DNA of 59,415 bases, counting the filler, from Sphacelaria rigidula (lineage: Eukaryota): the NCBI GenBank assembly GCA_964200075.2. It is 6 parts of 6 records of this genome, joined end to end, with 100 filler letters (N's around TTAATTAATTAA, not from the genome) between each part and the next. Parts side by side here need not be neighbours in the genome. Positions count along the whole stretch, not along the records: positions 9,921 to 19,740 come from CAXNAA020007692.1; 5 more parts are not named here. One strand, 5' to 3'. Below, piece by piece: positions 9,821 through 46,836 of the stretch; positions within the stretch are counted from its first letter, which is position 1, and each line of letters starts with the position of its first letter. Under the pieces are notes generated by a model that worked only from the letters and a program-made list of their open reading frames with translations, had not been told where the DNA came from and made no database searches. The position numbers and the translations under genes are program-made.

Positions 9821-9920
9821 NNNNNNNNNNNNNNNNNNNNNNNNNNNNNNNNNNNNNNNNNNNNTTAATTAATTAANNNNNNNNNNNNNNNNNNNNNNNN
9901 NNNNNNNNNNNNNNNNNNNN
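9821..9920. other. Artificial contig linker (N44-TTAATTAATTAA-N44)
   Basis: The same 100-nt spacer with an all-frame stop core recurs at 19741-19840, 29661-29760, 39580-39679 and 49498-49597. Confidence 0.97.
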
Positions 9921-10344
9921 ACAACCACAACTAGTGCAACACAATCACTTGCGGCCGCAGCACAACCGACTGTAACCGTAAATGCGATTTCAGCCGTTTT
10001 TTTTCTCCTGATTCCGCCGCACATGCCACCCTCAACTCTCTACTCTTCGCAGCTGACTGCAGTTTGGTATTTCGTTTGATGGAAACTTCTCAGATCGTAG
10101 TGCTACGTGAAGTGAAAGATGCGCGTTGATTTGCAGATTACCACGATGTGTCACAGTAGGGACAACTCGCGATGGATCGTCAGTTAGAACCGGCTGAAGG
10201 AAAGTCCGCTTCTCAGGCGGCCCAGCCTGTACCCAATAGTCGCACACATTTTATCATACTGCCCGCCATGGGCAGCTGAAGAGCGTGATATAGCCGGATT
10301 GGTGTGTAAGGCCATAGTGCTAGCGCAAAGTTATGAATCTCGAG

Positions 10345-11705
10345 CCCAATTTTTACCTAATCTCTGCATCCTTTAAATCATTGTAACCATCATCGGCTCG
10401 GAAATCTGATGATAAAAACATATTTCAAAACGGTTACTACGGGGGTCGTATTATACCCGAAACAGTGATGTTTCGGTCATGTCGGGTGTTGGCGTCGTCT
10501 AATTTCTACTAATGATGCGCACTGAAAGACCCGGGGAGCCTCGTGACAGTGTCCCGTATATCTGTTGTAGAGCTCAGATTGCTTTCAAACTCGGCACTTC
10601 CGTAGGTATTGATGCTCAAAATGGAAAAAAAAGGTATTCTTGACAATGTATCATGGTTTCTCCGTTATCTACCGGCTTCCGCGAGTCCCAGTATGAAGAC
10701 CCCCGGAGGGCGGTACAGAATGCCCCAAAAGAAAAATAATGGAATAATGCGTCCTGGGATAGTCTAAGGAACACATGTACGAAGTTTGGAGGAGAAACTC
10801 CAAAACCTCGTACAGTTTTTCTTGCATTGACGTCAAATTCACCCAAAAATACGTTCAGATACTAAAACCAAGTAGCTAGGAGTTACACGTTTCAAGCTAA
10901 CGTCCTCCACAGACGCGCAAACCTTCACGCTGTTATTAGTACTTAGATCCTGAACTTTTGCAAAAGTATGCAGTATCATTACGCAACTTTCTACGGATGA
11001 GTTTTTTTTTCACTTTTGGAGTTTTTCACCGTTTTTCGGGGGTCCGACAAGGCCCAAGTCATTTCTTAAAATAGTCTCCATTCTGGGACCCCAAAAAACC
11101 GGCACTACGATATTTTTTCGCGCACGATTTGTCGCTGCATAACCCGAGGGAGGGTCCCACAAAATTTCGTGGCAAAACTGGATCAACGGATGCTTAAATG
11201 TTCGTGTTCAGGTCAAAGAAGGCCCAAAAACCCCGTTAATAGTGTGCGGTTTTACCAGCACAAAAGCGAAAAACCTCACGCCGTTTCAAGAAGTTGGACC
11301 CTGAACTTTTGCACAGCCGTTCTATGGGTGATTACGTAACTTTGGACGAACGAAAATTTTCCCCCCGTTTTACGGGGGTCCGATTGGATCCATGTTTTCC
11401 CGAAAACTGGGACCCCCGACAACGGTGGGAAAATTCTAAAAGTAAGAAAAATCTCGTTCTTCGAAAGTTGCGTAATGGCCCATACATAACATCTGTGCAA
11501 AAATTCAGGGTCTAACTCCTTGAAACGGCGTGAGGTTTCGCCGATGAGTGTTTTTTGGGTGATGGGCGTGAGCCAGCTCGTACCACGGTTTGGGGTATAA
11601 TTCGATCCCATAGTAACAGTTTTCACTTATGTTTTTCCCGTTAGATTCCTGAGCTGATGGCGGATACTGCGATTTGAAGCATGTTGAGAGTGTGAAATAA
11701 TTGGG
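10345..11705. mobile_element. Foldback-like element with ~125-bp terminal inverted repeats and an internal 276-bp hairpin
   Basis: 10345-10470 is the diverged reverse complement of 11582-11705. Internal inverted repeat 11266-11541 (gcgaaaaacctcacgccgtttcaag...cttgaaacggcgtgaggtttcgc). A further diverged arm copy lies at ~10915-11100. Confidence 0.6.
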
Positions 11706-11817
11706 TAACAAATGTGTACATATTTATATATATATATTGCTGCCACGATATCCCCAGCTCGCACACATACCCAACGTGTGTTCCCGAAGACCCGAAAAAG
11801 TGCGGTATACGACGTAC

Positions 11818-11990
11818 AAAGGGACTGCTGAATCCCTCTAGCGATAAAAAATAAAGGCAAGCACCGCAGAAGAAAGGTGAGGTACATTTTTTTTTTTCCA
11901 GTGTTGACCTTCCTCCTGTGTGACCCCTGCTGGTGCGCCCACATATAGGTGTAGACCGGTGTCCCGAACAGATGAGACGATAACACACAC
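11818..11990 (-). repeat. Dispersed interspersed repeat fragment (retroposon-like)
   Basis: Minus strand ...gcaccagcaggggtcacacaggaggaaggtcaac...ttcttctgcggtgcttgccttt...ggattcagcagtccc resembles, from memory and unverified, an abundant brown-algal repeat. Single copy in this window. Confidence 0.35.
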
Positions 11991-12581
11991 AACTATCGAC
12001 ATGTATCGAAAACTCACCGACCTGACTATATGAAGGATACTAGACCGCGTCTTATAGAGACAAAAACAGAAAAGGGGAACGAAAAAAGCGTCCGAAAGCA
12101 GCACATCTTGATTGGTCGCGCTGGGCGGTCCATGATTTGCAGCGACTAATCGACATGCCGCTTTTAAACGCTAGTATCGGTCTGGTGAGACACAGCCTTA
12201 TTGGATACAAGCAGAGGACACTCGCACAAGTTGCAGTGGCAGAAGTGCCGCAGAATAAAACAGAAACTACGGGTAGGTCAGAAGCAATCTTGCGATGCTG
12301 GAGACACACCGTGTAACCCAGATCCTTTTATATCTCCAACGCTCGAAATTTGCGGTGCCCAGAACTCGATAGACCAAGGAAAACACCCTATGGATCAGTA
12401 GACATGGAACCGCGTAGCTCTGTGAGGATAGGGATAACGACCAAATTGTAAACCGCTGTTTGCTTTTTCCCCATCCTTGGTCCTCGTACTGTGTAATCCC
12501 TGACACCTATTGCGAGGCACTCCCTCTCCCGTGATTTCATGTGCACCATCATACTCGTGGTCTTCCCGGCGTCTCCCTCAC

Positions 12582-14590
12582 CTGTTTCAGCTGTGATGGC
12601 TTGATCTCCCGCCCGGTTTTTCATCATGTACGCGCCACCGATCACCTTGCCCTTCTTATCGCGGATGCTCTTGCTCTTGTACATGTTGATCCGGTTGATT
12701 GTTGCCTGTGAGGTAAAAACCAAGGTTTTATCATCAGAAAATTTGGGGGCGGCGACGACGAAAAGGTGGATGCGGAACACGACAGTTGAGAGTGCGGGGT
12801 GTGACGAAAACAAGCGGCGAAATTGACCGGCGGACATTGAAGGTTGAGGGGCGACACGATATCCAGCTGGTAACGGTGCCGGAAACGCTCGAATAAAAGG
12901 ATATGCAGGCTGTTCGACCATTCTGATTTCAAATTGTTTTGGTTTCCTTCGCGATGATTGAGGTGACGAAGCACACGGCCTGTGATATCGGTGGACAGAC
13001 AACAATCCCAAGATATATATATATATATATATGGATTTCGATAGAGCAGGTTCTTGAGCGATAACATGAGATGGCAAAATCATACTGCCGTTAGGTATAG
13101 GGGTGGTCGGCGGACCGGCAGATCATGATCGGCTCCCGCGCATTTCGACGTGATACACCAAATGCGGCGTTCCGAGCAACACTGACGGATCGCAACTGTT
13201 TGCTGCATGGCGGCAATTTCGAAGTTGCATGAGGATGGGGATATTTTCCTGTGCTTGGGAACGTGAGGTACGAGCTGTACCTCGACGTATTTCGTCACAA
13301 CTTGCTACTACTGCCCACTACAATCGTCGAAGCAAATATGGTGTCACGTGCCGGGGAGGGAGAGTGGGCAATTTGATCGCTCCGTTATTCTTGGAAACTG
13401 CTCTGAGAGCCTTCTAAAACCTAAACATCGCACGGTCTAATCTCACGACTAATCAAGTCCACACTCACATGTTTCAACACAACACTCAGTAGTACAGTGA
13501 CTCAACGTCCAGCACCAGCTAGAGTGCCGCAGCGCCTTGTTCGTTTTACGGCAGACGAAACAGCCCATACACCATGAAGTTTCCAACAGTGTGCACACAG
13601 CTCTGTGTGCCGACGAACACTATCTTGTACAGAGACGAACACAACCACAATATCGCAGCTCAGGCAATCCAAAGCTATTTGCAATGAGTCAACACACGAC
13701 AGTACAATGGCAGCTCCAGGAAATAAGCCAGCACATAAGAGAGGGCATATATGTGTGTGTGTCGCGGTAGAGAGAAACAGGACATGTCGCATGTTTTCGT
13801 CCTTCGCCCGATTTTGAGCAGGTCCTCAATTTTGGGCGAGTGCCGAGGTTGAGCGCTCGGCCATAATCGCGCTTATTTTAATCCACATTGAGTCATCCCA
13901 ATTCGTGTGTGGGAGGTCTGGCTTGTGTCGCGGGCGCCCCCTACTTTAATCTGGTAGGGTGCTCTCCAGGTACATTGTAAACATGTTCGGATTGCTCAGC
14001 ACAGCAGTAAGGAAAATGTCCAGATATACATAATACGAGGCAAGTCGCACCCCCGCAACAGCAACAGTGGCGCAGACGAAGGAGCGCATCCAATGAAACT
14101 GTCCTATTTCTTGCTATAAAACTCGCCCATCGTAGTCACATCGAACAACAAACCATACCCAGGCCCTTTTCACATGTAAAATATTTTGCATCCCACCATG
14201 CGTGAATGACGGGGTATACCACCCGGGTGGTGAATAAAGGTTGTCAACCTTGCTCGATTTTCTACTGCGTTCGAGAAGTGCACACCGCCGATCGTACCCC
14301 TGACAAGCTCTCGTCAAAATGTGTGTCAACAGACGGGTAAACTCATAGAGTGCACAGCCTCGTGTCTCTACAGACAATCTAGGTTGAAAAGACTCAATGA
14401 GCCAAGTGGGTCGCTCGCGCACTGTTCCAACATCAAGTCCGTCAAGATGGGGAATGATCGCATGAAAACACACCTTGTCGCGAAGCGAGCCGCCATTCGC
14501 CCGAATGCCATCCGTACTACGGTGGGGGTTCGCCGAGGAGTTGGACTTGGTCTTCATGTTGAAACCCTTGTGCTTCGGTTTTGGCGGCAT
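12582..14590 (-). CDS. NOG2: Nucleolar GTP-binding protein 2 (NOG2/GNL2/NGP1 family), first two exons only
   Basis: Exon 1 14590-14474 (MPPKPKHKGFNMKTKSNSSANPHRSTDGIRANGGSLRDK|gt) and exon 2 12705-12582 (ag|ATINRINMYKSKSIRDKKGKVIGGAYMMKNRAGDQAITAET-G|gt) join in phase. SSxNPxR...LRDKATIxRxxMY...RDxKGKxI is the characteristic NOG2 N-terminus. Downstream exons not confidently found before the contig end. Confidence 0.88.
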
Positions 14591-17339
14591 GATGGCTATT
14601 GCAGTGTTACCCAAGCACTCTGGGTGTCCTGTTTGTTGCTCAGCTGACCACCGGATTCGTTACAGAGTGTGAGTGGAGCTGGCAATGGCTGTCGAGCGCC
14701 CCAGCCAAACTAACCCGGCGGTATCGTGACAGCGTTCACAACCGGAGATACTCCAAAAAATTGACTAATACTCCACGCCTGCTCTTGTTTCTTCACCAGT
14801 CCAGACAAACAATTACTTCACCGAGCACTCCAGTAGCTTGCCTGTTGCGTTGGGCTCGACGTGGTGGGATGGATCATCCGGAGTCAACGCGGTTTGACAA
14901 ATCGTGACGTTCAGACCCGCAGCCCTTCGTGCTGATAAGATTCTCCCTGTATACGGAATTCAAGTCATAAGAAGATACATGCAATGATACCTGAGATACC
15001 CAAAGATAACAAAGTTTTATAAGAGTCACGCATGATGTCACATAATACAAAATGAACACCTTGTGAATACTGATACAGTACTGTGAAAAATGGATAATAG
15101 TCTGCAGATATCGTCATACCCGAGAAACTATGCTTAAATGTGTCATCACTCACTCCGCTTCTGTCTTGCCCGGTCGGTACAAAAGTCTTTGATCAAGTTG
15201 TCAGCTTGCGTGCACTACGTTCCCGGCGATAAGGTGGGTAAAATACACTACCATTATGGTTCTGTGGGTAATAGAGATTGGGTTAACTAGTTAAAACAGA
15301 TCTTCGTTACGATTCGCAGCACTACTACACACTTGTGCGGTGCACCTTGACAATGAGACCCTCCTTCAGCCCTTAGCTGCGCGCTGTCCTCACTTGGACT
15401 GACCACCGTGCGAGGCCGACGCCGATGCACGCCACTACCCGGAGGAACAAAGAGGGGAAGGCCTGACCGAACGTGCGCATTGCTAGCGTACGGCGAAGTG
15501 CACCCATTGCTTCACGTGTACCTATATGTATATTGCCGGGGACAGATCTGCTTTTTGTTCACTGCGGCCAACAGGCGTTTCCTCCCGCATCACACCCCCA
15601 AAAGACCGTACCACTTCGTAGTCTCTACAACAGTAGTATAGAACGAGCAATAAGCCAGAGCTCCCCGCTGTACGAACACTGACTGCTGAGAGCAAGGGGA
15701 TTGCTGGATACCCTCTGCAGCAGTCGATCGTGACTTCGGGTTCGATCGGCGACGTTAATAACCCTCGAAGCTCTAGTAACTGGTTCTGATCAATGGAGCT
15801 GCAGCTGTAGCAATGGAACCGACACGGCTTGTGCGTGAGGTCCGAAAACAGACCAATCGTCGTACAGCACATTTGACTCCACCCTACATAACGCCTGTGC
15901 TATGAAGCGACCATCGCGTCCTGAACGCATCCGCTCCCGGCCCGTACAGAGCTCACAAACGTGACGGGTACATCGCATCTGTGCAGTACAGTGCAGTGTA
16001 GTACCGCGTGATGTGTAGTAGAATCTCGATTTGTGGGAACAGTGGCGGGTATCTCACTGTCCTGTGCAGGAACGCTCAGGATCTCTTTCCGTTGGGGTGA
16101 TCACGTGAGGGCGACAGTTGTTGGAACTCGACAACATCTACGACGCAGTGGTTGTCAAAACTAACTTGGAAGAAATGACATTCCCTGAAGCGCCGAAATG
16201 TCAGAAGGGAAGGTCAAGCGGCCTGTGCTTCTCCACTGCTTTTGTAGGTCTGATGAGAGATGATTTGCGTTTCACATCATGAAGAGAAAATAGACGCAGT
16301 GTCTACGCATTCACCAACCCTTCCATGACTTCCATGACACCCCCTTCCCCGAGAGTGTTTTAATTCAAGGATCGATTTCACTAGTCTCTCACCACTCACC
16401 ACTCAGTACAGTACTGCGCCAAAACTACGAAGAAAAATAAATAAATATTATCAGACTGCCCGCACTATATTCGCGAATGCTCGCACTTAGCCCACATACT
16501 AAATCATTCCATTTGTGAGGGAAACTTTCTATGTTCATTTCTCAATCATGGCTGACCTCAATCCCGTGCAACTTGGTCCACAAGACAGGCAAAGCGACAA
16601 CAGTATTTGCAGCGGAGAACAGTTCCTTTCGGCCAGCGAGCAAATTAAACAGCCGGTTTTGGGCAATACCATCAATACGCCCTCTAAACGGCTGCCTCGC
16701 AGCCCAGATTTTGTGCACTGTGAGTGAACGCATTTGTGTACATGGTGCACTCACTTCCAAATCATGAGCAGCTGAGAGGATGCAGTGCTGGCAGACATTA
16801 ATACTGGCACACCCTCTGAAAAATGATGATCCGTAGAAACCTCGTTCTGGTATCGCCTGTAGAGATGCTCGGCGCCGAAGGCCGGGTCCTACGCGCGCTG
16901 TAGTCGCTGCAAGGCGCTGAAGCTTCGGTCATGTATCATGCAAACCACGAGCAACAAGCCCACGTGTCTGGTTCTGGGGTTGGGAGTTGCAGCAGTGCAC
17001 GACGGGATGAAGAAGGCTCAGGTTTGGTTCCGATAAATGTTTTTCATTTTGTATTTTGGGGCAGGACTGTACTTTATCCCTTATCCTATGGGGAGGGGGG
17101 GGAAATTACGTTAGTTCAGTCCGGTATTTTTTCATTCGCTTCGCTCCGGTCCCGCGCAACTCTCGTGAAGAAAAGGGTGTAGATGACGCCAAGCCCTATT
17201 GAGAAGATGAACTTATTTCAACATGTAATATGTAAAGCTATGTAAGAAAAATGACGAAGCAGAGCGGGTGTGGACGATGAACAAATGTGGATATAAAAAA
17301 CCGGAACTGAGAAATAGATGCACTACGGTTGTAAAGAGT

Positions 17340-17980
17340 ATACCACTGTGCTATTTTTTCCCCATACGAAAATGAACGTCCCGAAACTCCACACGACGCG
17401 TTCCGACACGTGTATACAGAATCCCATTCACACTACCATAGGAATTGTTTTTCACACCTCCATTCACGTTTGCAGACATTTCGACACCTGCATACACCCA
17501 GTTCGTCGATGTATTACCTCACCGAGCATTCTTTGTCCCCTCTGGTTTCGAGTGCAGGTCGAGCGAATGTCGATAAGGAGGCGTTGGCAAAATGCTATGC
17601 TCTCGTGTGTAGTTACATAGTCATATACTGTACACTCAGTTCGTCGGCACATTTCGTAGGGTTATGATCCAAGCATTCCCCTCCCTCCAGTTTCGAGCGA
17701 CGGTTGGGCGATTGTCGAGGAAGAGACGTGCAAAATGCTCCGCACTTTTGCGTCCACACACACACATACTCCACACAGTATAACCTACAGATACAGCCGT
17801 TCCACTCACATAACCATATATTTTTTTCCCTGCACGGAAACGAGCGTTCCGACACGTGCATCCACACCTGCACGTTACCTTGCTGAGCAATCTTTGCCCC
17901 CTTCCCTTTTCGAGTAAAGGTTGTGCGAATGTCGATAAGGAGGCGTTGGTAAAATGCTGCGATCTCGTGCGTCGTTACGA
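17340..17980 (+). repeat. Degenerate direct repeat array
   Basis: Motif tttcgag...gcgaatgtcgataaggaggcgttgg.aaaatgct...tcgtg.gt.gttac at ~17545-17617 and ~17908-17978, a diverged copy at ~17690-17755, and gcgttccgacacgtg at ~17398 and ~17844. Confidence 0.7.
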
Positions 17981-17999
17981 TTTCACGTATTTCGTGTAC

Positions 18000-18932
18000 A
18001 ATCGACATGTACGATGGGCCCAAACAAAAGAGGCTGGCATCGAGGTGTGGAGAAAATCGCGTAGAATATAGGGGGGAGGGGTGGAAGAAGAGAGGGGGGG
18101 AGAAAGGAGGAAATTAATTGCTGGAAAATGAAACTCACTGCTCACTTTGCGGTGTTGCTCGCGCTTCAAACATCAGGCATGAGCTGGCGGGTCTTTCCAG
18201 GTTTCGCCGAAATATTTCAGGCCGTGTGGCCGCGGTACATTCCACTTTGACGCCGTCGACGAATGCATGGTCCTTGTTGTGCTCTAGAAGGTAGAGGCCC
18301 TGCGAGTACATCCTCTGCGAAAGATAGTGGGGCAGGAAGCGATAATGCGCTTCACTATCGCTTTATGTCCCACTGTCTTCTGCAGGGGACGTGCTCGCAG
18401 GGCCTCTACCTTCTAGAGCAGAACAAGGACCACGCATTCGTCGACGGCGTCAAAGTGGGATGCACCGGGGTCATAACCTCATGACTCAGTGCATTCCACC
18501 TTGATAGTGTTGACAGAAGAATAATCCTTGTTGTGCTCTAGAAGGTAGAGGCCCTGCAAGCACGTCCTCTGCGGAAGATGGTGGGACACAGAGCGATAAT
18601 GTGCTTCACTATCGCTTCATGTCCCACTATCTTCCGCAGAGTACGTGCTCGCAGGGCCTCCACCTTCTGCGGCACAATAAGGATGATTCTCTTGTAAACA
18701 CCATCAAGATGGAATGCTCCGGGGTCATGGGGCCGGGGGATGTTGTAGCGAACACCCAGAAAGGCCCTCCCGCTGATGCCCGGAGTTCGAAGCGGGAGCG
18801 ATAACGCAAAGTGAGCAACGAGTTTCCTTTTTCAGCGAGTCATTTCCTCCGTCTTCCTCCTATATTCTACCTTTTGTTCCCCATACCCCCGTGTTTTCCT
18901 TTTTTTGCTCGGGCCCATCATGGATGTTGATT
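18000..18932. repeat. Nested palindrome: outer inverted arms enclosing two tandem ~250-bp hairpins
   Basis: Outer arms ~18000-18225 and ~18729-18932; hairpin 1 ~18225-18474; hairpin 2 ~18481-18728; both apices read gcgataatg(c/t)gcttcactatcgc; period ~254 bp. Confidence 0.9.
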
Positions 18933-19149
18933 GGCAAATGCTGCACCTTCGTGCGTCGGATGTAAACTTATATTCTTGATGGTGTACTGTCACGTTTGCC
19001 CCCTCCGAAGCAAGTGGTGAAGTTATCAGACTCGATCAAGCATGAAATCCTAGTCATACTGGATTGTGACTTGAATCCGCGTTCACAGCTGCCTCTATTA
19101 ACCCGAGCTTAATTTTGTGCACGGCAGCGCACAACTGACCATGGATATT

Positions 19150-19520
19150 TCCAAGGCTGTGCTCTGTAGGGTATGGGTATGTTCCGTACGGTAAGATTCT
19201 TCACACAACCTACAGAACTATCGGGCACCGGTGTGCAAGACTACGTGAAGTTACAGAACCTTCCGTGTAGTGTATGAAGGTTGCACAGAAAACTAAACCT
19301 GCAACCGTTTATTTTCACGGGTGTATGCCCGCGCCCCGGGTAAGTTTTGTTTTTGTACAGAACTTACAGAAGTATAGGGCAAGGGTAAAGTAGGCTTACA
19401 GAACTCACATAACCGTCGGGCATCGGAATGGAAGTCTTCGGGGCGTCGCAGAACTATCGGTCGGGGGTATGAAAGTCTTACGGAAGTCACAGAACTGTCG
19501 AGTACGGGAAATACCCCGCG
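19150..19520 (+). repeat. Dispersed repeat with ACAGAAC(T) subunits
   Basis: Recurrent acagaact/acagaacc/cagaagt motifs interleaved with gggtatg-like motifs at ~30-45 bp spacing. Confidence 0.55.
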
Positions 19521-19535
19521 TATACAAGAAAAGTA

Positions 19536-19740
19536 GGGAAATGGCCTAGAAAAGGTATACCTTGTCGTTTGTTGCCTAGGAAAGGTACGAAAAACGGCCA
19601 GAATCGCGAAAACAGCCAAAAACGCCATTGCGACCGTTTTCGCTCCGGATTTTTCACGCACATCGTTCGGGGAGGCCATTGACACCCGCGTCTCGAAGAA
19701 AAACGGATAAAAAACATGTTACTCGAGAGATATGGCCACG
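19536..19740 (+). mobile_element. Terminus of another copy of the long-TIR element family of 619-2773 (cut by contig end)
   Basis: gggaaatggcctagaaaaggtatacctt...gaccgttttcgctccg...acatgttactcgagagatatggccac aligns with 619-824 and starts at the same GGG. Confidence 0.8.
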
Positions 19741-20122
19741 NNNNNNNNNNNNNNNNNNNNNNNNNNNNNNNNNNNNNNNNNNNNTTAATTAATTAANNNN
19801 NNNNNNNNNNNNNNNNNNNNNNNNNNNNNNNNNNNNNNNNTCTACTGTCTGGAGTGCTGTTCAAAGAAATGCTCTAAAGAGCCTGCTCACCGGAGACTGA
19901 AAAACGCTAGATAGGAAGATCCAAAAAAAGACAACCTCGTATCCTTCCACTATCCTAGTATCGAGGTACGAGCCTCTTGGGAACCACGTCTATCTTGCCA
20001 TCTGTGCCTTACCCTTGTCCATTTATCTTCGTGTGCATACCATCAGCAGTTTTTTATATCTTCACGCCAGGGTATGTATACTGGCCTACGATCAGCAACT
20101 CCTGTCTTCCCCACTTGCATTC

Positions 20123-23659: not shown

Positions 23660-24895
23660 CCCGCAAAGATTATATCCACCTACATAGGTGGATCCTTATT
23701 TCCACCGTAACCTTTCATCATGACCGATCCCGCATTGTTTTTTTTAATTTGGGAGCCCACATTTTTCCAATCAGCTGCCCGCTACGGATGTGTGCAAACA
23801 AACTGGGTTCGGGTAACGAGCAGAACCAGAGCCAAGTTTTAGAATTCGAGTGCGCCACTTCTACAAACCCGCTACAAGCGCTTCCCTCTGATACGATGGC
23901 AACACAAAAGCACAAGACATTTCTTCAATGAACTTTGTTAGGAGCAGGGCCTCCCGTCCAAAAACCAACTAAAAAAATGCGTGTGAGCACGCCACGCTGG
24001 GCAAAAAGTGCACCTGAATGTCTTGCCTTCATCAATCTATCGATCCTAACTTTGAGAGTCTCTCGATGATGAACATCTGGGCCGAAATGGCAACCCCCAA
24101 CCATCCTTCCACTCTGGACGTCCATTAAAATGATTACACAATTCAAAGGAAACGGCAAGTACGTAGCAGACAAGACGAAATAAATGAGTGTATACAGCAG
24201 AGACAAAACATAAAGAGGACCGACGGAGTATCGAAGTCCAGCCAGCACGAGTCAACGTCGAGCACGACGGAAAACACCGACTTCGATATTTCATCATCCG
24301 GTGGTGCCGTGGATGAGATTTTTTTTCTCGAGATGATGGGCATAATACATTCTATACGATGTAGACTTCACGGTATAAAAGTAGTACAGTCAGTGCCAGG
24401 GTGTTGCAGCAAGCAAGAGTATTCACAATACAGACCGTGGATTTTGCGAGCAGTACGACATTACAACTATAGGCTCTGCTTCGCAAACACGGCACAGCTG
24501 TAGTCTGTACTTGTTATCTTGTACTACTCCAGGTCCGAGTACAGGCTGTACTCTGCCAGGTTACAAGCACGGGCTGTACTCGCGAGCACAGTAGGTAGCT
24601 GTGCTTTACCAATACAGTACAGTACTATACCGTCTTCACTGTAGGGTTCGAGGTCACATGCAGCTGCACATCCATGGCAGTGGATGCAGATGCAGAAGAT
24701 AGGACTACTGACTACTGCCTGCACTGCGGTACTACGCGTGAAGGCTTCAGTTTGTTTGCACACATCCGTAACGGGCAGCTGATAAAAAAAATGTGGGCTC
24801 CCGAATAAAAAAAACACAACGCGGGATCGGTCATGATAAAAGGTTACGGTGGAAATAAGGATCCACCTATATAGGTGGATATATTTTTTGCGATA
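23660..24895. repeat. Inverted repeat pair (~145 bp) at ~23660-23806 and ~24748-24895
   Basis: atatccacctacataggtggatccttatttccaccgtaacc...gatgtgtgcaaacaaactg and its reverse complement; each arm contains the near-palindrome atccaccta(c/t)ataggtggat. Confidence 0.85.
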
Positions 24896-25981
24896 TTTTC
24901 CGGACACGGAGGTCTCATCCCCCCCCTTCTCGGAAAACATTTTTTTTTTAATTGTCGTGATTTTTGACATTTTTTTTTGTGATTTTTTCTTGAATTTTTT
25001 GTTGAAATTGTTGGAAAAATTGATTAACAAACACTGACAAAAACCGAAAATTCTGGCGGGCTTTGAGAGGTTCGTATATTTACTTCTGCTCCTTACCCGC
25101 CCTGTCCCAATGATGTTGGATGACGGCAACGCTGACAGATATCTTTGTATACACGAGCGCACGGTAGCGACAGCCTGTAGCCAAAGTAGCAACGTTTTTT
25201 GCCAATTTTTCCCGTACTGCTTGTGGTAAATAGTGGAGGCACACGACACGGAACATGATCCCATAAATGTAATAATGGTAGGTGATGAGCTTGGAGGGGC
25301 GGTGTGTGCGTCATCTCAGCGGTCTCCAGGCCAAGAGTCTCTGTACACGGCAGCTGACTGCATCCGCCAACGCCTCGGCAATAAAAAAGGGGACAGCAGG
25401 CTGGGTGTCCCACCCTCCCCTTTAAAAGCTCGAATTTTCGATCTTGGGGCCTATGTGCCCCGAAATATATTTTTGACAGACCCTCGCTTAACCACTGTTG
25501 TAGTCTCCTTCTCTGCTCCTCCTTTTCCCCATCTTTTTCTCTGTATGTGTTCTTCCCTACCGATGTATGCATGTATGCCAGAGTAGTGTGGTGTCTCGTT
25601 TCATTGTGCGTTGTGTTCGTCTATGAATGAGAGTGTTCACCCTCGGGTTCATACTAAAAATATTGCGGTCACGGTAGACGAGGCGCAATCTTTTCCTACG
25701 GCCTTTTGTTCTCCACGACTGGGTATGAGGGTGCTTCTGCGCAAGACCTTTTCCCACCAAAACCACATCCCAGAGGCCGGCCATTTTTGTTTTGTTTTTC
25801 CTCCTCTCTTTCTCCCTTTTTTTTTTCTTAGTATACTCTGCTGTTCTGTTTAACCTTTTCTGTTTCTTTTTTCTTTTTCAGCGAGTGTTTCAGTATTGTT
25901 CTGTTTTGGATACTCCCGTCATGTGATCACGGCTCGAGGGTCAGTCAAAGTACGACAATCAATCGATCAATCAAACAGTAC

Positions 25982-29267: not shown

Positions 29268-31143
29268 GTAATACAGTACTCAGTTTCCGGGATACGATCG
29301 AACCCTTCGGTTACCCATATGCCATATTTCTGGAGTTTTCTACTACGGGAGTGCCGCGAATCTTTGAAAAGGCTATGCGTACAGTAGGTTTAAGTCCACC
29401 CTAGGCAAACGTGAGTGGTTAGCACGAAGTTATTGACGTTGATCTTATTTTGATTTGATTGTCGCACTTCAAATGACCACCCATGGGTCCAGCCGTGGTC
29501 GCATGATGGACGTTATACTAGACAAAAACTCCAAGCCGATGGGCGCGCAGCATCATTTTGCCATGGAGTCATCCTACGATAGGGGGGGGGGGGAATTTGG
29601 TTGCACGAAAAACGAGGCCCATAAGTGGGTCAGCCAACCTTCCCCACTTGCGTTCCGCTTNNNNNNNNNNNNNNNNNNNNNNNNNNNNNNNNNNNNNNNN
29701 NNNNTTAATTAATTAANNNNNNNNNNNNNNNNNNNNNNNNNNNNNNNNNNNNNNNNNNNNCTATCTTGATCCTCCCCCCCCCCCCCCCCCCCTCTTTCTC
29801 TCTTGAGATTTATTTTGGTGGCATGTATGTACGAATGTGCGGACTGTTGTTTGGGGATAGCTACAGTAGCTCCGCAGGTGGTAGTTGAAGCAAAAAGCTC
29901 TTTCATGGGCAAACTTATTGGCAAGAACGATCTCATGCGTTGGAGCACCCAGCAGCTGCTCAGTGTGCTCGGCTTTGCCATGATGATTTCGCATGTACTG
30001 TGGATTGTTCTTCATCAAGCCACCCACTTTTCTGGGGGGGGGGGGGGGGCTCCTCACTCTCCCGCACACCCCCGCCATGAAACGGCTAAGGCGGGCGGGG
30101 GGCGCCGCAGTGTTGTTCGTTTTTGGGGGGTCAANNNNNNNNNNCTTCTTGTTCTCTGTGTTCTCCTTATGTTTTTGCGTGTTATGTTGCCCCTCCTCCT
30201 CCCAGCCCCTCGGTGGGGGGGGGGGGGGGGGGGGGGGGCTCCTCACTCTACCGTACAGCACCGCCATGAAACAGCTAAGTCGGGCGAGGGTCGCCGCAGT
30301 GTTGTTCGTTTTTGAGGGGTCAACAAAAGTCGACGTGGAGTAAAAAAGCTTTTGACATTCCGTGGGCCATGCATGACCAAGCAAAATCAGTAGAGTACAG
30401 GGCGAAGCGATTTACCTGCCGCTGCTTCATCAAATGCGCTACTGTAGCTTGAAGGCGTTGGTTGCGGTGTCCGGGTGTGTCTCGCGGTCGCTTTGCGGCG
30501 ACCACGGAACGACGTCGGTGTTTTCGTCGGAGAAGAGCACCCCGTGTCTGAAATTTAATTAAGGATTGAGGGCGGGAGAGTGTTTCTTCTGTTTTTGTAT
30601 TTCTTAGAATTCTCCGGGTTCGAGTTCGGCATCGATTTTTTTTGTCAACCTTTGGCAGTAGGGTGGATCATCGGGATCCTCCTGAATTCATTGTTCAAGT
30701 GAATTTGATGGAGGTTCAACAAATGATAGACCGTGGTGGTCGAAGGACAAACTTGCTTTTTGAAGCTGATCCGCCGAAGGCGGTGCTACACATACAACAT
30801 ACATGCATGACACTCAAGTGCCATGCTGTTGGTGGTTGTTTCAATGTCCCCATGTTTTGACTGCTTTGGTGACGAAATATAACTATGCCAGCCGGTAACG
30901 GTCCCTAAAAAAAACGACGGTTTGCTTGGCAAAATATTACCGTCATGTTCCCGAAGAAAAAAGAAAGAATGAAGAAAAACAAAAAATTAATCGCGTAGAA
31001 TACAACATATATATATATGTATATATTAGCGTGTTTTGTCATGCCTCCTCTCAAGGGTTATTCGTGTTGTGTCGTACGTTGTCGTCCTGTCTTGTGTGTA
31101 ATCTCGTCCACAGGAGGAAAAGTTGGGCAAGCAAAAAGTGATA

Positions 31144-32914: not shown

Positions 32915-35900
32915 CTATCGCAGGGCGTCTGGTGTTCCCCGCGCTTCGGCCGTTATCCTGGATTCACCGTCACCCTCATTCCTCTCTTGTCTCTCCTTGT
33001 CCTCCCTTCTAATTTCCTCATTTTTCTTCTTAGCTTGCAGTTTCCTGCGGTATCTCCGCACCTCTTGCGCGAATCCCCACAGCAAGGGGAACGCAAGGGG
33101 TCCCAGGAAGGGCATATACACCGCCACCAGATGATCCTCTGGGAAATACAGTTGCGGGATCATTGTAGGGTCGAAGTAGGCGGCCTCAGCTCGCTGCAGT
33201 GATTCTCGAGCCCATCTTAGCGCCCGCCTCGCACCATCGTCGTACAGCGCCCGCCGCCCAACGCTCAGCCCTTCGCCGCCTCCGACCCCGCTACTACGAC
33301 CCACCGGGCTTGCCGCGTCCTCCGGTGATGGAATGTGTGTTTGCCGTGCAGTGGCGGAGCCGGCAGCGGCCGGAGTAGTATCACCGCGGCTATGATCTCC
33401 CGATGCTCCTGCTGTCCCCGGCGTCGTTGCTGCTGTTACGCTTGTCGACTGGCCAGATATTACCGTCGCGTCTGTCCTTCGGAGGGCAGCAAGTGCCGCA
33501 CTCACATCGTCTGCGATCTTGTTACTAATTTCCATCTCGGAGCTGGATTCCACCAGCGCCGCGAGGGACCGCAGGGTATCCGCCGCGGCGCGGCGGTGAT
33601 GAGCGAGTCTTGCGCGCACCAATGCGTCTACTTCCCACTCGGTTGCCCCGTCCTGCGGGGACGGAAGAAACACCAACGACACCGTTGTAGGAGGCGGATC
33701 TTGAGAGACTGAGCACAACTGACAAGTACTAGTGATCTTCCCTGCACCACCGGGGGACTCGCTAGCAGAAGTTACTCTCTCCTTCATGTCCCCGTCACCC
33801 TGGTCGCTGATTTTTGTTGGATCGTGCCCGTCCTCACCACTGTCAAGGCCGTCTGCGAAAGATATCCGAGGCCAAGGAGCTTGGGTCGGCCGGTCGGCGG
33901 GCCGCGGGAGCCCGATGATGCGCCGCAGTTGCGCTGCGTGTGCACCCAACGCTCTCCGAATGCGCTCTGGGTTCACCACGTCCACCGAGGAATCTACAGC
34001 AGAGGTTGCGTCCTTCGGCGTTGACGATGTTGCCGACGTCTTTCTAAAACCGTTGATCACCGACACCCCGCCGAACCCTGGTACCTCGTATGCCTCCGCG
34101 GCAGGCTGTTTCGAGCTTCCTGCGCCAACCCACTCTTCCATGAAAACTAAAGGAGAGTATGCAGAAGAGGGACAGAAAACCATGAAATTGACGGGGACTT
34201 GCCCGTGCGGGGAAGACGTCGTTCGGTGATTAATGTCAGTAACGTTGACGGCGCCTTCTCCACTTACTATGCTGTTTCCATCGGTTGGTGCTGCTCCCCA
34301 TGGATCGTCGAGATCAAGAATTGAGAAATCGTTTACACCTAGGAAGCCTTTCAAATCCTGCGGAGAGTAGTACCACCGTCGGCTGCGCGGATGTTGTCGA
34401 GGCGGGAACCGTGATAGCTTTGCGTAGGCAACCTCCTGAGACTAGAAGTTGCAGTTGCGAAAGGAGACAGGGGTGGAAGGTGAATGGGCAGGGGGGGAGT
34501 TGTCGCATGAAGCTTGTCGGATGAGAATAGAGCAGAATGGTGCAGAGGCCGGGTAGACGGGAGGAACGAGTAGGTTTTCAGATTAGGGATAAGTGGGGCG
34601 TCGTACAAGGGTCGTCGATGTTCTGGGGATTTCACTGATAAAACGGAGACGTAATGTCAGCACGGCACGCCCCGTTTCAGATCAGATTTAGGGTTGTTAC
34701 CACGGAGCTCACGCCCCTAGGCGCCTTTCCAACACATACAAATTGGTGGGTCTGTACCGTCGTATACTCAATATTATAGTTAGCACGCTGACAGTGCAGC
34801 GTATAACACACATGAGTCGCCACTGGCATTCTACTCGCACCAGTGGCTAACATCATATGCTATGAGCTGCATCGCCACTTCCTAACTCGTATTGCATCGT
34901 GTTCACCTGCACAGCAAAGCTCGCCACCGGATTAAGCTTTGTTAGAAGCGGCCTTAGATATCTCCTCGACGCGCTTGCGAAGTCCCATGTGCATTGCCTA
35001 ACGGCGGGATCCTCGCTCATTAACGAGAAATTCAGGCGGTACGCCTGCCCCAGCCTTGCGTGAACATCCCCAGGCGACACGGGCGATCGCAAAACATGCG
35101 CCATAATGATCTCCGCTAGCGACTGTACCACCGCCAGAGCGGCCGCCGCCGCCGCCGCACGCGCCGCGACCCCCAGAGCATCTCTCACAGGTCCTCCTCG
35201 TCCTGAGGACGCCGTTCCCGCCGTTGTTTCAGGTTTTTTCACGTCCGATGGTGCCCGCGAGGATCTTTGCGTCACCTTGTTCTCGTTGGTAATTGTGGCG
35301 GCGGGAGTTAATTTCACGTCGGTTGGGTTATATGACATGTGTGGGTCGTTTCCCGCGTCGTTGCCGTCGTGACTGCAGGAGCACCCGCAGCCGAGGCCTA
35401 GATAGCCATGCCTGTGCTTGCCCATGATGAATACGGGGGACTGCCCCGATGCGCCACCCCCCGAGCAGCCGACAAAGAACGTATATCTTGTAGTGGGAGT
35501 AAAAGACGCCGACGGCTCTGCCGTCAAGGGCACAGCGGACGCTGATCTTCGGCCGTTGTCGGTCACAGAGAGGGCGGCTTTCGTTGGCTTGGCTCCGGCG
35601 TGTTGGTATTGTTTGTGGTAGGGTATTAGTAGATCGACGAGCCACTCATCAAGAGCTTCGGGTTGGCTAACAGGAGGCTCTAGTGCTGCAGCCGACGGCA
35701 CGGTATAGACGTAGCGAAGGTCGACATCTCGGACGAAGAAGAGGGGTTGCTCTGGGTCTTGTTCATTCGTGCTGGAACCGTGTGAGGAACCTGCCCGCGC
35801 GCCTGCCTGCTTCTGCTGGTTCCTTCTGTCGAGTTGCTCAGCCGATAGAAACACATCCCGAACCAGAGATGGGTCGGATTGCATGGCGTCTAGAATTGAT

Positions 35901-36139
35901 GCGCAGGATGGACAGTCTACTCCACTGCTACTTGCTACTACCCCCGCCGTGCGGGTGTTGCGCAGCACGACAAGATCGATGTCTACCGGTACTGCTGAAG
36001 GCAGTGTAGAGCTCAAATTGGCCATGACCTTCAGAGGCAGGGGGGCACGGCTCACCACCCCAAGGCGCCATGCTACCAACACGCTGATGAGCGAGAAGAC
36101 CAGAAAGCACGTGTGGGCTACTAATCGTGTCCCAGCCAT
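32915..36139 (-). CDS. PIGS: GPI transamidase subunit PIG-S (Gpi17 family), complete, 2 exons, ~919 aa
   Basis: Exon 1 36139-34907 (N-terminal TM helix then RAPLP; YRLNFSLMSEDP...WDF...YLRPLL...FAVQ|gt) and exon 2 34441-32915 (ag|SQEVAYA...EVPGFGGVSVIN...QLRRIIGLP...EWEVDAL...TLRSLAALV...AYFDPTMIPQLYFPEDHLVAVYMPFLGPLAFPLL, stop). Phase-0 junction; C-terminal signature typical of PIG-S. Confidence 0.9.
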
Positions 36140-39060: not shown

Positions 39061-39265
39061 CAAGGGTAGGTCGAGTAGAGTATACTCAATTGCGGGGTAT
39101 TTTGAAAGTCGTACTTGAAGTACACATATTGGGGGTAAAATTTCAGGAATCGCCTCCCAGCTATTTTTTGGGTACGACTCCCAACACTCTACCCTAACTT
39201 GAGTACCCCAAGTACATCTTTCAAAATACCCCGCAATCGAGTATACTCTACTCGACCTACCCTTG
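39061..39265. mobile_element. hAT-type MITE with perfect 8-bp TSD
   Basis: caagggtaggtcgagtagagtatactc...gagtatactctactcgacctacccttg with ~60-bp TIRs; ctgagttt at 39053-39060 and 39266-39273. Confidence 0.88.
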
Positions 39266-39922
39266 CTGAGTTTGTTCGACGAGCGTCGACGCGGTGCGGG
39301 AGTGCTGATAGTCATGATCCAATCCGCAAGACCGAAATGCAAGCTATGTACCGGGGGAGAGATGATGGGTTGATCCCTTGTGACCGCGGACCCGTCCCGA
39401 GAATAAGGTGTGCGTTTCAGAGTAGATCCAACTCCAAGTATTTGCCGTATAATGGGCCTGCAAACTGCAGAATCGCTTCTCGGTTGGCCCAGCTCGTACG
39501 AAAGATCCGTATGAGACCGATTGAACTACAGGAGACCTACTTGTACTGGAATCAGTCCCCGCGTGTGACCTCTCCGACTNNNNNNNNNNNNNNNNNNNNN
39601 NNNNNNNNNNNNNNNNNNNNNNNTTAATTAATTAANNNNNNNNNNNNNNNNNNNNNNNNNNNNNNNNNNNNNNNNNNNNATAACACAGCTCCGGCAAAGC
39701 ATACACTGCATGGGCTACCGTGAGAATGGCGTCGCTGGATATCCATTCGTATCTCGACAAGATCTTTCTTGGGAGATAACACAACGTGACCCGAGCCACA
39801 GCACAAAAAGTGGCGCAAGTGCCAGCCGTACAACCAGCTATGGTAATTTTCGACTCAAAGCAACACAACTACTTTCGCTGTCAGGCTTTTCGTGGCCAAT
39901 AAAGTGTAGAGGTCAGCAGTAC

Positions 39923-42900: not shown

Positions 42901-45900
42901 ACCTTGGTTAGGCTGATGGTGACGCTGAACATGGCGCAACAGGAAGAACTGCTGGAGCCCAGGCCGTCCACGCCCGCAGATATTCCCGTGGCCCAACGCC
43001 TGGAACGGAGAGCGCTCAGCACGCTCCCTTCCCCCTCGTGCCCTACCAAGTGCCCGATGTAATCCGTCGGTTTCTTCTTGTACAGGCTATAATCGAGACA
43101 GAAGAGCAAGACAATTATCACCGATCAAAAACATACGCAACGGAGAACGAAATGAGGAGACGTGAGCAATGAAGATGCAACACGAGTAGACCGCCGTTTT
43201 CAAGGGGATGTGACAACAGGACTACTTGCAGCTGTGTTCCGTAAAGAGGTGATTTGTTGGAGTGACAGCAGACAAGACGAGGGTAAACAAAAAGAGCATC
43301 CGTGATCTTAGCCTGCACCAGGCGAAGACGGCCACTCATTCAACATTGGCAGTGCCCATCAAACAATCTTTCGCACCCTTCGTCCATACAATTTCCATTA
43401 GCGGTACTTTCTTGTAGGTCAAACGATCTCCCGTGGCCTTTGTCAAAACACTCATCATCTCCATATTGACAGTACTTCCGCATACCATTACGCTCAATAA
43501 TATCCGATGCCGTTCGTCGAATAGTCATATGATCAGTGCTTCATGTTTCCGCGGTGTATTCCTGCACGCAACAGCCCCCCCACACACAAGCATACCTCAG
43601 CTGCTCCCTCAGCTGCCACGTCACATGCAAGCGGTGGAAGTCCTTCACCGGCTGTACCCTAAATACCCTACCCAGCGAGTCTTCAGCAAACGGTAGTCCA
43701 GTCGCAGCCACCGTCGCTGCCTCGGCCGGCAGCCCACCAGCCTCACCACCTCCTCCGGCCTCCGTCCCCGGCGCCACAGACGAGAAACTTTCGAGCACCA
43801 TCTTCTCCAGCTCGTCCAAAGTATGCCCGCCGAGAACGACGAGCTGCATGGCCGGAGCGCGGTAGTGTTTGTCGTGGAAGCGCACGAGCTCCTGTCGTAC
43901 GTCCACTTTCTTCGAAAAAGGCACATCTCGTAGGGACCACAGATTGCCCCAGCAGAATTTACTAAATGGGTGACCTATAGGACGCATGTGCAGAGTATGT
44001 TGCACGAAGCATGATTTTTGGTCGCAGGCATGAGTCGGTGAGAGATTATTTCCGGACGGGATAGTATTGGGCAGACAGCGCGAAAGTGAAGGGGGAAGGT
44101 GAAGGAGTTGGGGTGTAACCTGTTTGAGCTGTGTTTTGTCCCCGAGCGAGGTGAATATTAGACGATCATCAGAGTACATGCCAGGTAATTTCGTGGGTTC
44201 CTGCGAGAAAAATCAAGAGCCAGAGTGGTTGTCGTGTCATTATCAAGTACTTGGAACACTCTCACTCAACTTCCGAGTGGTTTGATACTCTTGCCAAAAA
44301 TCCCTGGTTGGGCGAGGAGGTGTCCTGCTGCACTTAAACTTTGCTCGACCGTGACCTCACCGCGGCCCCTACCGGAGTCTCTAATGAACTTGCGCTAAGC
44401 GTGCCGTGCAATATTGTGATTTGAGCTATCCAACAGAAAATGTGCTCGAAGAGGATGCGTGATCAACCACATGCATGATCATGAGTACACCCGCCCCCCC
44501 CCCCCCCCCCGACCACCACCACCACCTCACTCCCCAGCGCCGCAAGGACAAGTTCGTGCCAGTTACCTCGCTTGGAGGTGTGACACCACAGCTCCTGCAG
44601 CCGGCACATGTCGCTGTTTTTGGACAGACAAAACTCGCTTTCGATGCTCTGCAGCTCGCGATCGCTGCTCTCGGCCTTCATCAACGGCCTCACGAAAAAC
44701 TGCGCGAAAATGTCCAAGGCCTGCATGCATCCCACACCACACGTTGAGTATGAGTCCGTAGACAAAAACAAAACATTTTCATATCGGGGAGAGCGGTTGG
44801 ATGCTGCGATTCATAACCCCGTGAAAATAATCACAGGTTACGAGCGCTCCGAGCAAGCATCATGCAATCATGCGCACGATGAAAATGAGCCGCCAGCTGG
44901 TAGGTGTATTTGTTTGGCATGTCATACGTACAACGCCCCACTTGGAGCAACATTGACTTTAGGGTACACTTTGGGACGGCAAGTCACGGAATTACAGAGC
45001 AGGTCTGGGTTTTCGATACTTTGCTCAAATCTAGGCAATGGCACGATTACCGATGCAGAATAAGCGTTACATCATACACACGCATTATCGTCCACAACGA
45101 GTATGACGGAGTTTATTCTACGCAGTTTTGGCAACGTGATTAACCGACATGGTGAGCCGATACGAACATCAGTGTACTCCACACAGCCACCCGTCGGCCG
45201 ACGTTCATGCCCAACAATATTTTCCTCTTTGTTGCACTGCTGGACAGCCAGCGCCCATCTTCGCACGTGAACAAAATACTCCCGCGTCTATTGTGACGAT
45301 CACACAACCAGGTTGTAGGCTGAACAAAACGTAGTGCCAGGCTTTGGGGGGAGGTGCTACATACTACCGCTCACACTCATGCACGCACCTTCTCAAGGTG
45401 GTCCGGAAGCACGTCGAAGTGATATAGCGTGTACTCGCTCTCCGTGAAGGCGTTGCTAGAACCCCCCATCTGAGAAATGAACGAGTCATACTCGTTTTCG
45501 TCGGGATACTTGGCCGACCCCATGAAGAGCATGTGTTCCAGGTAGTGAGCTAAGCCCTGTGTTTGTTATTTTGTTGTTTTCGGAACATCGCCAAAAAATG
45601 GAGTGCCCACAAGTGAGCTGGGCACTACAGGGGGAGTCCATCGCACGATATCCCGACAACCGTGTGTTCGGCTGTGCGTAGTGGCAGCGAGACGAACTGA
45701 ACATGGCAGCTATAGCTTGTCGAACGGGCGTTGTAGTTCGCGAGTAAATTGCGTGTTCATATGACGAATGGGTATTCTTCCGAGAGGGTTTCAGACAACC
45801 TCCAGGGACATGGTGAGCACACCAACCATGCTTGGCACAAAAGCGGACTGATGAGGAAAGCTCAACGCTGCTTGCGACCGTACAGTACGTGTTTTTAGCA

Positions 45901-46747
45901 ATTCTGCTGCGAATCGTCCCGGTAATTGGGCCGCATCCGCGGGATCAACAGCAACAGCCAGCACTGTTGACTGTGCTCCGTTTACACAGAGCTCACGGGT
46001 CCGTGATGAACCATGTGGTACCTGAGCAGCATTGAAAGCTTCGTAACAACCTTTGTAGCTTGTAACGAGGCGCTGTTGAAGCGATCGCGGAATATGAACG
46101 GGTTTTTGCTGACCTGGCAGTGCTCCGGATCCGACAGGCTTCCTACACCCACGGCCATCGCGGCGGCCGCCTTCTTTAGGCCCTCCGGTTCCTCGCGCTC
46201 ACCATCTTCGTCTTCTCCATCCTCTTCGTCGCCTTCGTCCTGCAGAGACAGTAGTACAGCAACTATCACCGGCTATTAGGTCCGCGGAGGAGAGCAAAGC
46301 GATGTAGCCCTCAACAACGGCCGCAACGACAACAATTACAACAACCGTCACCATCACCACCACTACGAGCAAACAAAAATTGCCACCCTTGATGGTATAC
46401 TGGTAATAGTACTAGTAATAGAATAGTAGTAGCAGTAGTACTGGTATTACTACCACCACTACTTCTACTATTCTACTACTTCTACCTCTGCTACTAATAA
46501 CAATAGTACTAGTGGTACAATAGTAGCAGTAGTGCTAGCATTACAACCACCACTACTTCTACCATTCACCCCTTCTTACTGCTGCTGCTACTACTACTCA
46601 TAGTACTAATAGTATAATAGTAGCAGTAGTGCTAGTATTACAACCGCCACTACTTCTACTATTCTACTACTTCTACTTCTGCTACTACTACTCATAGTAC
46701 TATTAGTAGAATAGTAGCAGTAGTGCTGGTATAACTGCCACCACTAA

Positions 46748-46836
<89 letters not shown>

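Follow-up and report, generated by a model that had tools for sequence, protein, structure and literature searches.

Here we describe a nested inverted repeat found in 59,415 nucleotides of genomic DNA from Sphacelaria rigidula (assembly GCA_964200075.2), hereafter the window, which consists of six parts joined end to end. The element occupies 935 bases within the part taken from record CAXNAA020007692.1, is non-coding, and has the layout A-H1-6 nt-H2-A', i.e. two long hairpins (H1 and H2) standing in tandem between the outer inverted arms A and A'. We consider it on balance probable that the element originated long ago as an inverted repeat of foldback type, that its central palindrome underwent tandem duplication, and that a short patch on one hairpin arm was replaced and mirrored onto the partner arm, after which the arms were left to neutral decay. 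The locus is not detectably a gene.

An earlier note on this DNA had proposed the architecture A-[B-loop-B']-[B-loop-B']-A', with two hairpins of about 250 bp in direct tandem, and a repeat scan, blastn and Tandem Repeats Finder all agree with it; the layout holds, and only the left boundary has to be moved, as the left outer arm begins at 17999 and not at 18000. The arms of H1 are 87% complementary (85.0% over 247 nt by blastn). Those of H2 are 84% complementary between 18491-18601 and 18607-18717 (80.2% over 257 nt by blastn), and H2 reaches 18481-18727 once a 1-nt deletion is allowed. Compared with each other, the two hairpins are direct repeats (79.2% over 240 nt by blastn), and Tandem Repeats Finder reports a period of 254 with 1.8 copies and 81% matches. 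The loops have the same orientation, as had also been proposed: in the six loop-side columns of the arm alignment the same-side arms match at 5/6 (left arms, 1L-2L) and 6/6 (right arms, 1R-2R) vs 3/6 across arms. Three of the four hairpin ends have a common 18-nt terminus (1R-2R 16/18). A 33-nt motif of the scaffold, searched with up to 3 mismatches, occurs three times in the window, each time within the element, with 0 occurrences expected.

The outer arms are 77% complementary over their inner 107 nt (18096-18202 / 18754-18860) and 81% complementary at the termini, from which they carry on inward, and the complete inverted match at 18106-18850 amounts to 74.6% over 748 nt (blastn). Global alignment of A with A' yields 151 paired positions, and the mismatches are 30 transitions and 19 transversions. 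The left outer arm also contains some 25 nt of purine-rich sequence that the right one does not have. Either strand folds as two long hairpins carried by an outer stem, with energies of -637.0 and -603.1 kcal/mol and z = -36.5 and -36.9 for the two strands (20 shuffles each); H1 alone gives -216.3 and H2 alone -172.0 kcal/mol on the plus strand. Each hairpin stem has about 120 pairs, and both branch off the outer stem of about 200 bp.

The four hairpin arms were cut symmetrically about the centres 18350 and 18604 and compared without gaps over 124 columns, comprising 29 columns of a variable window and 95 non-window columns; comparisons of the scaffold refer to 71 columns. Seventy-six columns are invariant, 30 are altered in a single arm (1L 5, 1R 6, 2L 9, 2R 10), 5 are multi-state, 1 has the pattern xyyx, and 3 are side-specific (xyxy), located at the loop and the outer end. 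The other 9 columns are hairpin-specific (xxyy), namely 21, 26, 28, 29, 32, 36, 39, 41 and 45, all of which lie within 25 nt. Random placement of nine sites on the 124 columns was equally tight in 0/200000 trials. Hairpin-specific sites make up 9 of the 16 variable columns in the variable window vs 0 of 32 elsewhere (Fisher p = 6.8e-6), or, counted over all columns, 9/29 inside it vs 0/95 outside. When H1 and H2 were compared pair by pair, 9 of the 120 pairs were altered on both sides, all in columns 20-44, and the count fell to 1-3 when the partner was slid by 1-3 columns; the corresponding shuffle control (3/500) is a weak one with two sequences.

Hand counts had previously been given for a slightly larger window of 32 nt, with 31/32 matches for 1L-1R, 26/32 for 2L-2R, 20/32 for 1L-2L and 18/32 for 1R-2R, and these counts are exact. 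They had been taken to mean that plain duplication followed by independent decay fails to give the pattern, which is borne out by the Fisher test and by simulation. When four arms decayed independently from one ancestor, at least 9 such sites arose in 0/100000 runs at per-arm changes of 0.07 and 0.10, and in 28/100000 runs at 0.13. Because of the clustering and the simulation results, we regard the hairpin-specific pattern as real and duplication plus decay as rejected.

The variable windows of H1 and H2 agree in register at 15-17 of 29 positions (16/29 corresponds to a binomial p of 0.0005 vs 25% chance identity), and they are diverged homologues, not swapped, unrelated payloads. The nine changes read T>C, C>T, C>G, C>T, C>T, G>A, T>A, C>A and G>A from H1 to H2. 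Since 6 of these 9 changes go from GC to AT, it is weakly suggested that H1 probably carries the ancestral state of the patch. Neither H2 arm retains any of the four CpGs that the H1 patch contains, and the CpG observed/expected ratio over the whole window is 0.98. CpG decay as the sole cause of the patch was rejected, because H2 retains 7 of 8 scaffold CpGs (p = 0.0014) and 5 of the 9 sites are non-CpG. Located some 20 bp above the base of the hairpin, the patch is paired at 28/29 positions in H1 and 23/29 in H2. It is not significantly better paired than the scaffold, the mismatches being 1/29 vs 10/71 in H1 (p = 0.17) and 6/29 vs 11/71 in H2 (p = 0.56).

Outside the patch the relationship of the four arms is star-like. 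In agreement with the previous description of the loop-proximal 70 nt or so as alike in all four arms, the six arm pairs all match at 60-63 of 71 scaffold columns, corresponding to Jukes-Cantor distances of 0.12-0.17. These columns contain 17 single-arm changes, 1 xyyx and 1 multi-state column, with 0 xxyy and 0 xyxy. The outer arms are about twice as diverged, with a distance of 0.30 (49 mismatches in 200 aligned columns), and the variable windows of H1 and H2 are 0.60-0.77 apart (lower 95% bounds 0.28-0.37). The scaffolds would thus have last been identical when the hairpins already differed at 9 or more of the 29 variable-window columns, each hairpin being internally complementary. Since the arms are equidistant outside the patch, and since none of the 95 non-window columns is hairpin-specific, the patch seems to have arisen in a burst by copying and not through stepwise compensatory change. 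Gradual divergence is ruled out for the patch because its window distance exceeds that of the enclosing outer arms, and selection on single mutations is a misfit because at least 18 substitutions fall on two arms and none in the 190 neighbouring positions. One or two templated DNA events would fit these data. After the burst, the scaffold bears no sign of arm-to-arm or hairpin-to-hairpin conversion, and the earlier suggestion that the arms are homogenised by conversion is therefore not supported as an ongoing process. A different origin, in which the whole structure is a single inverted duplication centred on 18477, is not supported, as the loops are direct and there is 1 xyyx column vs 3 xyxy columns; loop flipping could mask such an origin.

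A stem that is kept paired as a transcript of one strand is expected to accumulate later mismatches that favour G:U on that strand. Among the 34 stem mismatches, 14 are G:U-compatible on the plus strand, 13 on the minus strand and 7 are transversions (p = 1); with the outer arms added, the G:U-compatible mismatches number 32 (plus) vs 25 (minus) (p = 0.43). The later mismatches favour neither strand, i.e. there is no RNA-strand signature.

A coding signal is likewise lacking. All four arms retain an open frame that runs loop outward. The 75-residue open reading frame (ORF) of the arm has 0 matches among 1.84 billion representative proteins and no match in Pfam, a 96-residue ORF across H2 has no word triplet in common with any protein of a 5.8-billion set, and the variable columns are distributed over codon positions 1/2/3 as 17/14/17. 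We therefore rejected the idea that the arms are a captured gene fragment, considering the absence of protein and Pfam matches and the flat codon positions, and regard the open frame as accidental. The element has no coding capacity of its own and possesses terminal inverted repeats (the 81% complementary termini), both of which are features of foldback elements and miniature inverted-repeat transposable elements (MITEs).

We propose that the palindrome A-B-loop-B'-A' came first, and that a tandem duplication of its central part, the hairpin B-loop-B' of 248 nt together with 6 nt of spacer, took place at a stage when the arms were still essentially perfect. Around then, an ectopic or error-prone templated event would have replaced some 25 nt in a single arm of one of the hairpins, 20 bp up from its base. 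The new patch would next have been copied in mirror image to the partner arm, through an intra-hairpin template switch or through repair of a hairpin heteroduplex, and the latter would naturally be limited to the sole mismatched stretch. Subsequently, the four arms may have decayed independently and neutrally by about 4-8% each, and the older outer arms further. The anatomy, the star-like scaffold, the clustering of the hairpin-specific sites and the lack of strand bias and coding signal are direct results, whereas the succession of events, the way in which the patch was made and the direction of its change are inferred. Template switching in replication can yield multi-base 'compensatory' stem changes in one event (PMC8794818). 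The 9 hairpin-specific changes, mirrored on the partner arm, are of the kind that such an event would presumably leave, as judged from two hairpins with no outgroup. If the element is transcribed, the 120-bp duplexes would be Dicer substrates, and small interfering RNAs (siRNAs) could then appear as a by-product, with no designed 'payload' required. The coordinates of the parts and of two flanking motifs are collected in Table 1.

Table 1. Parts of the nested inverted repeat and associated flanking motifs (positions in the window)
Feature	Position	Length	Details	Basis
Outer left arm A	17999-18226	228 nt	holds terminal inverted repeat 17999-18029	inverted matches and global alignment
Hairpin 1 left arm (1L)	18227-18347			repeat scan and arm alignment
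Variable patch in 1L	18246-18270		arm columns 21-45	
Window of the earlier note in 1L	18242-18273	32 nt		
Hairpin 1 loop	18348-18352		centre 18350	
Hairpin 1 right arm (1R)	18353-18473		variable patch 18430-18454	
Spacer separating hairpin units	18475-18480	6 nt		read directly
Hairpin 2 left arm (2L)	18481-18601		variable patch 18500-18524; 1-nt deletion near outer end	
Hairpin 2 loop	18602-18606		centre 18604; orientation as loop 1	
Hairpin 2 right arm (2R)	18607-18727		variable patch 18684-18708	
Outer right arm A'	18729-18933	205 nt	holds terminal inverted repeat 18903-18933	inverted matches and global alignment
Direct motif on both sides of the element	17952-17974 (+) / 18936-18958	23 nt	part of local repeat 17514-17616 / 17875-17978	
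Reverse complement of 2R patch 18698-18709	18974-18985 (+)	12 nt	about 265 nt away	

Several observations weigh against the proposed history. No donor of the patch was identified in the 59 kb, where the lone right-flank 12-mer is within chance. No target-site duplication is visible at 17999/18933, i.e. there is no abutting direct repeat; decay of about 20% could erase a short one. Membership in a mobile family is unproven, with no second copy in the 59 kb, and two rare events are needed close in time. A constrained scaffold could likewise give 0 hairpin-specific scaffold sites. Moreover, pairing within H1 is best in the patch (28/29), a difference that is not significant, and the position of the patch about 20 bp above the base is also compatible with a processed small-RNA duplex.

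When the element was searched by blastn against the whole 59 kb, no second copy was obtained, and the only match outside it was a 71-nt local repeat in the left flank. A pattern scan of bacterial and archaeal contigs gave 0 matches and blastn against plasmids gave none, both collections being without eukaryotic genomes. No transposase associated with the element was found. The names foldback and MITE are applied to this element as our assumption.

In the flanks, the two copies of the 23-nt direct motif are separated from the element by 25 nt on the left and 2 nt on the right, and their local alignment score of 29 was reached in 0/500 shuffles. The motif could represent a repeated target region or the trace of a rearrangement. 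The local repeat to the left of the element, of which the motif is a part, is 80-104 nt long with a spacing of 362 nt, and copies of the motif stand at 17590, 17733, 17952 and 18936. The 12-mer at 18974-18985 is the sole exact 12-mer match of the patch in the 59 kb (0.8 expected by chance), and 8/300 shuffles scored as high in the flank alignment. It spans four hairpin-specific sites together with one change private to 2R. Such a 12-mer copy is the footprint that a template switch would leave, and we tentatively list it as a weak candidate for the donor. Copying of the patch from elsewhere in the 59 kb found no firm support: 21-mers of the four variable windows, searched with up to 4 mismatches, have no match in the rest of the sequence, and the 12-mer is a weak lead only.

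We consider it rather unlikely that the locus is instead a transcribed small-RNA locus. According to this explanation, it would be a two-hairpin cluster of microRNA (miRNA)-like or hairpin RNA (hpRNA) type, carried on one branched precursor, in which the 25-nt patch is the small-RNA duplex and the hairpins are paralogues with a retained processing scaffold and divergent guides. The fold on either strand into an outer stem with two long hairpins (z about -36) agrees with it, as does a patch that is complementary within the hairpins about 20 bp above their base, and the intramolecular duplex of at least 100 bp that characterises hpRNA is present. Brown algae have Dicer and Argonaute, their miRNA foldbacks average 170 nt, and many of their extended hairpins yield small RNAs (PMC4513859, PMC5381526). 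Tandem hairpin siRNA loci are described in flies, where hp-CG4068 consists of 20 tandem hairpins (PMC12697358).

The conservation, however, is reversed with respect to miRNA paralogues, in which it is the mature region that is conserved. When the patch already differed at 9 or more sites, the four arms still had one and the same scaffold, which selection on point mutations does not produce, and, as described above, the later mismatches show no G:U preference on either strand. At the gathering score, Rfam gives no match anywhere in the 59-kb stretch. A permissive search of 17500-19500 returns 12 sub-threshold matches of 16.5-40 bits vs cut-offs of 53-97, spread over 10 unrelated miRNA models and both strands. 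Such sub-threshold matches to miRNA models are what any long hairpin gives; a known RNA family was therefore rejected, and there is no tRNA either. In addition, with up to 4 mismatches allowed, no 21-mer of the variable windows finds a target-like match elsewhere in the 59 kb. Brown-algal miRNAs are rarely clustered, and the published criteria, as far as they are given in PMC5381526, demand a simple, non-extended hairpin and exclude extended or branched ones; the stems here are of about 120 pairs and branch from an outer stem. The match to a described family that is a further miRNA criterion is likewise not obtained from Rfam. The earlier note had left a small-RNA cassette and a foldback DNA element as two alternatives that the sequence alone cannot distinguish. 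Its small-RNA half has a low probability, and the sequence does tilt toward foldback DNA with template switching.

Improbable to a similar degree is that H is itself a fully palindromic mobile element of about 248 bp with the ends ATGAC...GTCAT, and that H1 and H2 are two different members of its family that came to lie next to each other inside an older A/A', either because both inserted at one site or because copies recombined, the patch being an inherited subfamily difference. The common 18-nt terminus at 3 of the 4 hairpin ends (1R-2R 16/18) would be explained in this manner, as would the separation of the units by only 6 nt that are unlike the sequence after H2. The approximately twofold greater divergence of the outer arms is also expected if H is younger than A/A', and tandem transposon dimers generated through double insertion are described (PMC5932611). 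On the other hand, no other copy of H occurs in the 59 kb, and there is no unambiguous target-site duplication, the candidate 'AT' being palindromic and lying within the inverted ends. A mirrored patch event is still required in one source lineage, so that the puzzle is only moved, and two palindromes inserting exactly at the centre of another one is contrived.

A far less likely possibility is a natural hairpin cassette, present or past, with a constant scaffold and a variable guide, in which new guides were written into both arms at once by templated copying. The scaffold common to the two tandem precursors could then comprise the loop, a long upper stem and some 20 bp of lower stem, and each precursor would have its own, internally complementary duplex of about 25 nt placed where base-to-loop dicing, the geometry known from plants, would cut. 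If this were true, the mirrored patch would be the trace of guide installation and not an accident. Least credible of all is an assembly artefact, i.e. a chimeric fold-back read, or two alleles or collapsed repeats misplaced in tandem. Artefacts of libraries and reads are a known consequence of palindromes, and the stretch is made of blocks of about 9.8 kb whose source is not a finished chromosome, but artefacts give identical or nearly identical copies, whereas the four hairpin arms differ by 11-26% and the outer arms differ by 25% and also by indels. In addition, no N separates the hairpin units, and the linker closest to the element (19741) is reported to be at least 1.8 kb away.

Returning to the foldback origin that we prefer, the element resembles foldback transposons and palindromic MITEs in being non-coding, in consisting nearly entirely of inverted arms with internal repeats, in lying among repeats and in having arms of 75-87% complementarity. 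It differs from them in that neither a target-site duplication, nor a second copy (59 kb), nor a transposase was found, and in the tandem duplication of its central palindrome. With template-switch mutations that create or repair stems (Monttinen and Loytynoja 2022, PMC8794818; Loytynoja and Goldman 2017, PMC5453318) it shares clustered changes that recur exactly reverse-complemented on the opposite arm, without change in the surroundings. The published cases covered by these two sources, however, mostly involve 6 bp to tens of bp and come from RNA genes and human variation. The present element has 9-10 mirrored changes, which lie in a DNA palindrome of 120 bp, and no template was identified for the origin of its patch. 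Gene conversion in large palindromes, such as those of sex chromosomes, is continuing and arm-wide. The arms of one palindrome then have common changes that are absent from the neighbouring palindrome, as here; in contrast, the common changes in this element are confined to one 25-nt patch, with a scaffold free of later conversion.

Long, near-perfect inverted repeats in direct tandem, readable as one precursor, are also found in hpRNA siRNA loci such as Drosophila hp-CG4068 (PMC12697358). The known examples described there are animal, however, and the tandem copies of flies are either nearly identical or unrelated hairpins. Brown-algal miRNA loci (PMC4513859, PMC5381526) have in common with this element long foldbacks produced from genomic hairpins and a host lineage, here linked to brown algae by two genes, but those described in these two sources are rarely clustered, mostly intronic, and simple, non-extended hairpins. 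Here, 120-bp stems branch from an outer stem in a stretch without a recognisable gene. In Ectocarpus, transposons have the top small-RNA coverage once rRNA, tRNA and snoRNA reads are removed (PMC4513859, PMC5381526). Tandem hairpins with a constant scaffold and one variable window were not found described in the portions of the literature covered by a limited search, from which only a weak claim of novelty could be made.

If the DNA-level explanation is true, the locus is a clean natural illustration of a pitfall in inferring RNA structure: 9-10 mirrored stem changes can arise without any selection for pairing, implying that 'covariation' between paralogous hairpins in a palindrome would be no evidence of a functional RNA. 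The locus further exemplifies a nested, partly duplicated palindrome that survived long enough for 15-25% decay. If the small-RNA explanation is true instead, this would be an unusual locus in a lineage with independently evolved miRNAs.

With regard to the genomic context, the parts of the window are joined by 100-nt linkers at 9821-9920, 19741-19840, 29661-29760, 39580-39679 and 49498-49597, each consisting of 44 N, a 12-nt motif with stops in six frames and 44 N, and the adjoining blocks of about 9.8 kb may not be neighbours in the genome. The element belongs to block 9921-19740. A separate gap of 10 N is located at 30135-30144. Two protein-coding loci were recognised, both in other blocks and on the minus strand: a gene for PIG-S, a glycosylphosphatidylinositol (GPI) transamidase subunit, represented by ORFs 32915-34183 and 34853-36139 with a gap of about 670 nt that is presumably an intron, and a Peptidase_M16_C exon at 43541-44179. 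Their named relatives are all brown algae, namely Laminaria and Hapterophycus at 44% (among 23 matches) and Discosporangium at 50% (among 2 matches), and further records match at 56-64% identity. Among the ORFs of at least 80 residues in positions 1-32 kb (111 of 232 listed), none has a Pfam domain.

Inverted repeats are common in this sequence. Twenty inverted-repeat pairs were listed for the 59 kb, of which 5 are linker artefacts and 4 belong to the element. To the right of the element, a degenerate tandem array at 19213-19495 is built from a unit of roughly 47 nt that is present four times, three of the copies following one another at 41-nt intervals, with 64-74% identity to the reference copy; the 41-nt tandem repeats at 19367-19495 lie between the element and a dispersed repeat with long terminal inverted repeats. 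The latter repeat has inverted arms at 619-1242 / 2242-2773 (about 620 nt) with a spacer of about 1 kb in block 1, and a third terminus at 19535-19739, which starts about 600 nt to the right of the element and is truncated where the block ends; identity among the copies is 80-84%. A second candidate 'nested palindrome' at 46400-46840 was rejected as an unrelated low-complexity repeat of TAC/GTA. An inverted repeat at 23662-23805 / 24748-24892, with arms of about 144 nt that are 91-93% complementary and a spacer of about 940 nt, overlaps an ATG-initiated ORF of 246 residues (24524-25264, minus strand) with no Pfam match, and may be a transposon remnant. A group of inverted repeats at 10977-11538 has arms of 51-65 nt, and another inverted repeat, at 39061-39134 / 39192-39265, has 74-nt arms (88%) enclosing a 57-nt loop.

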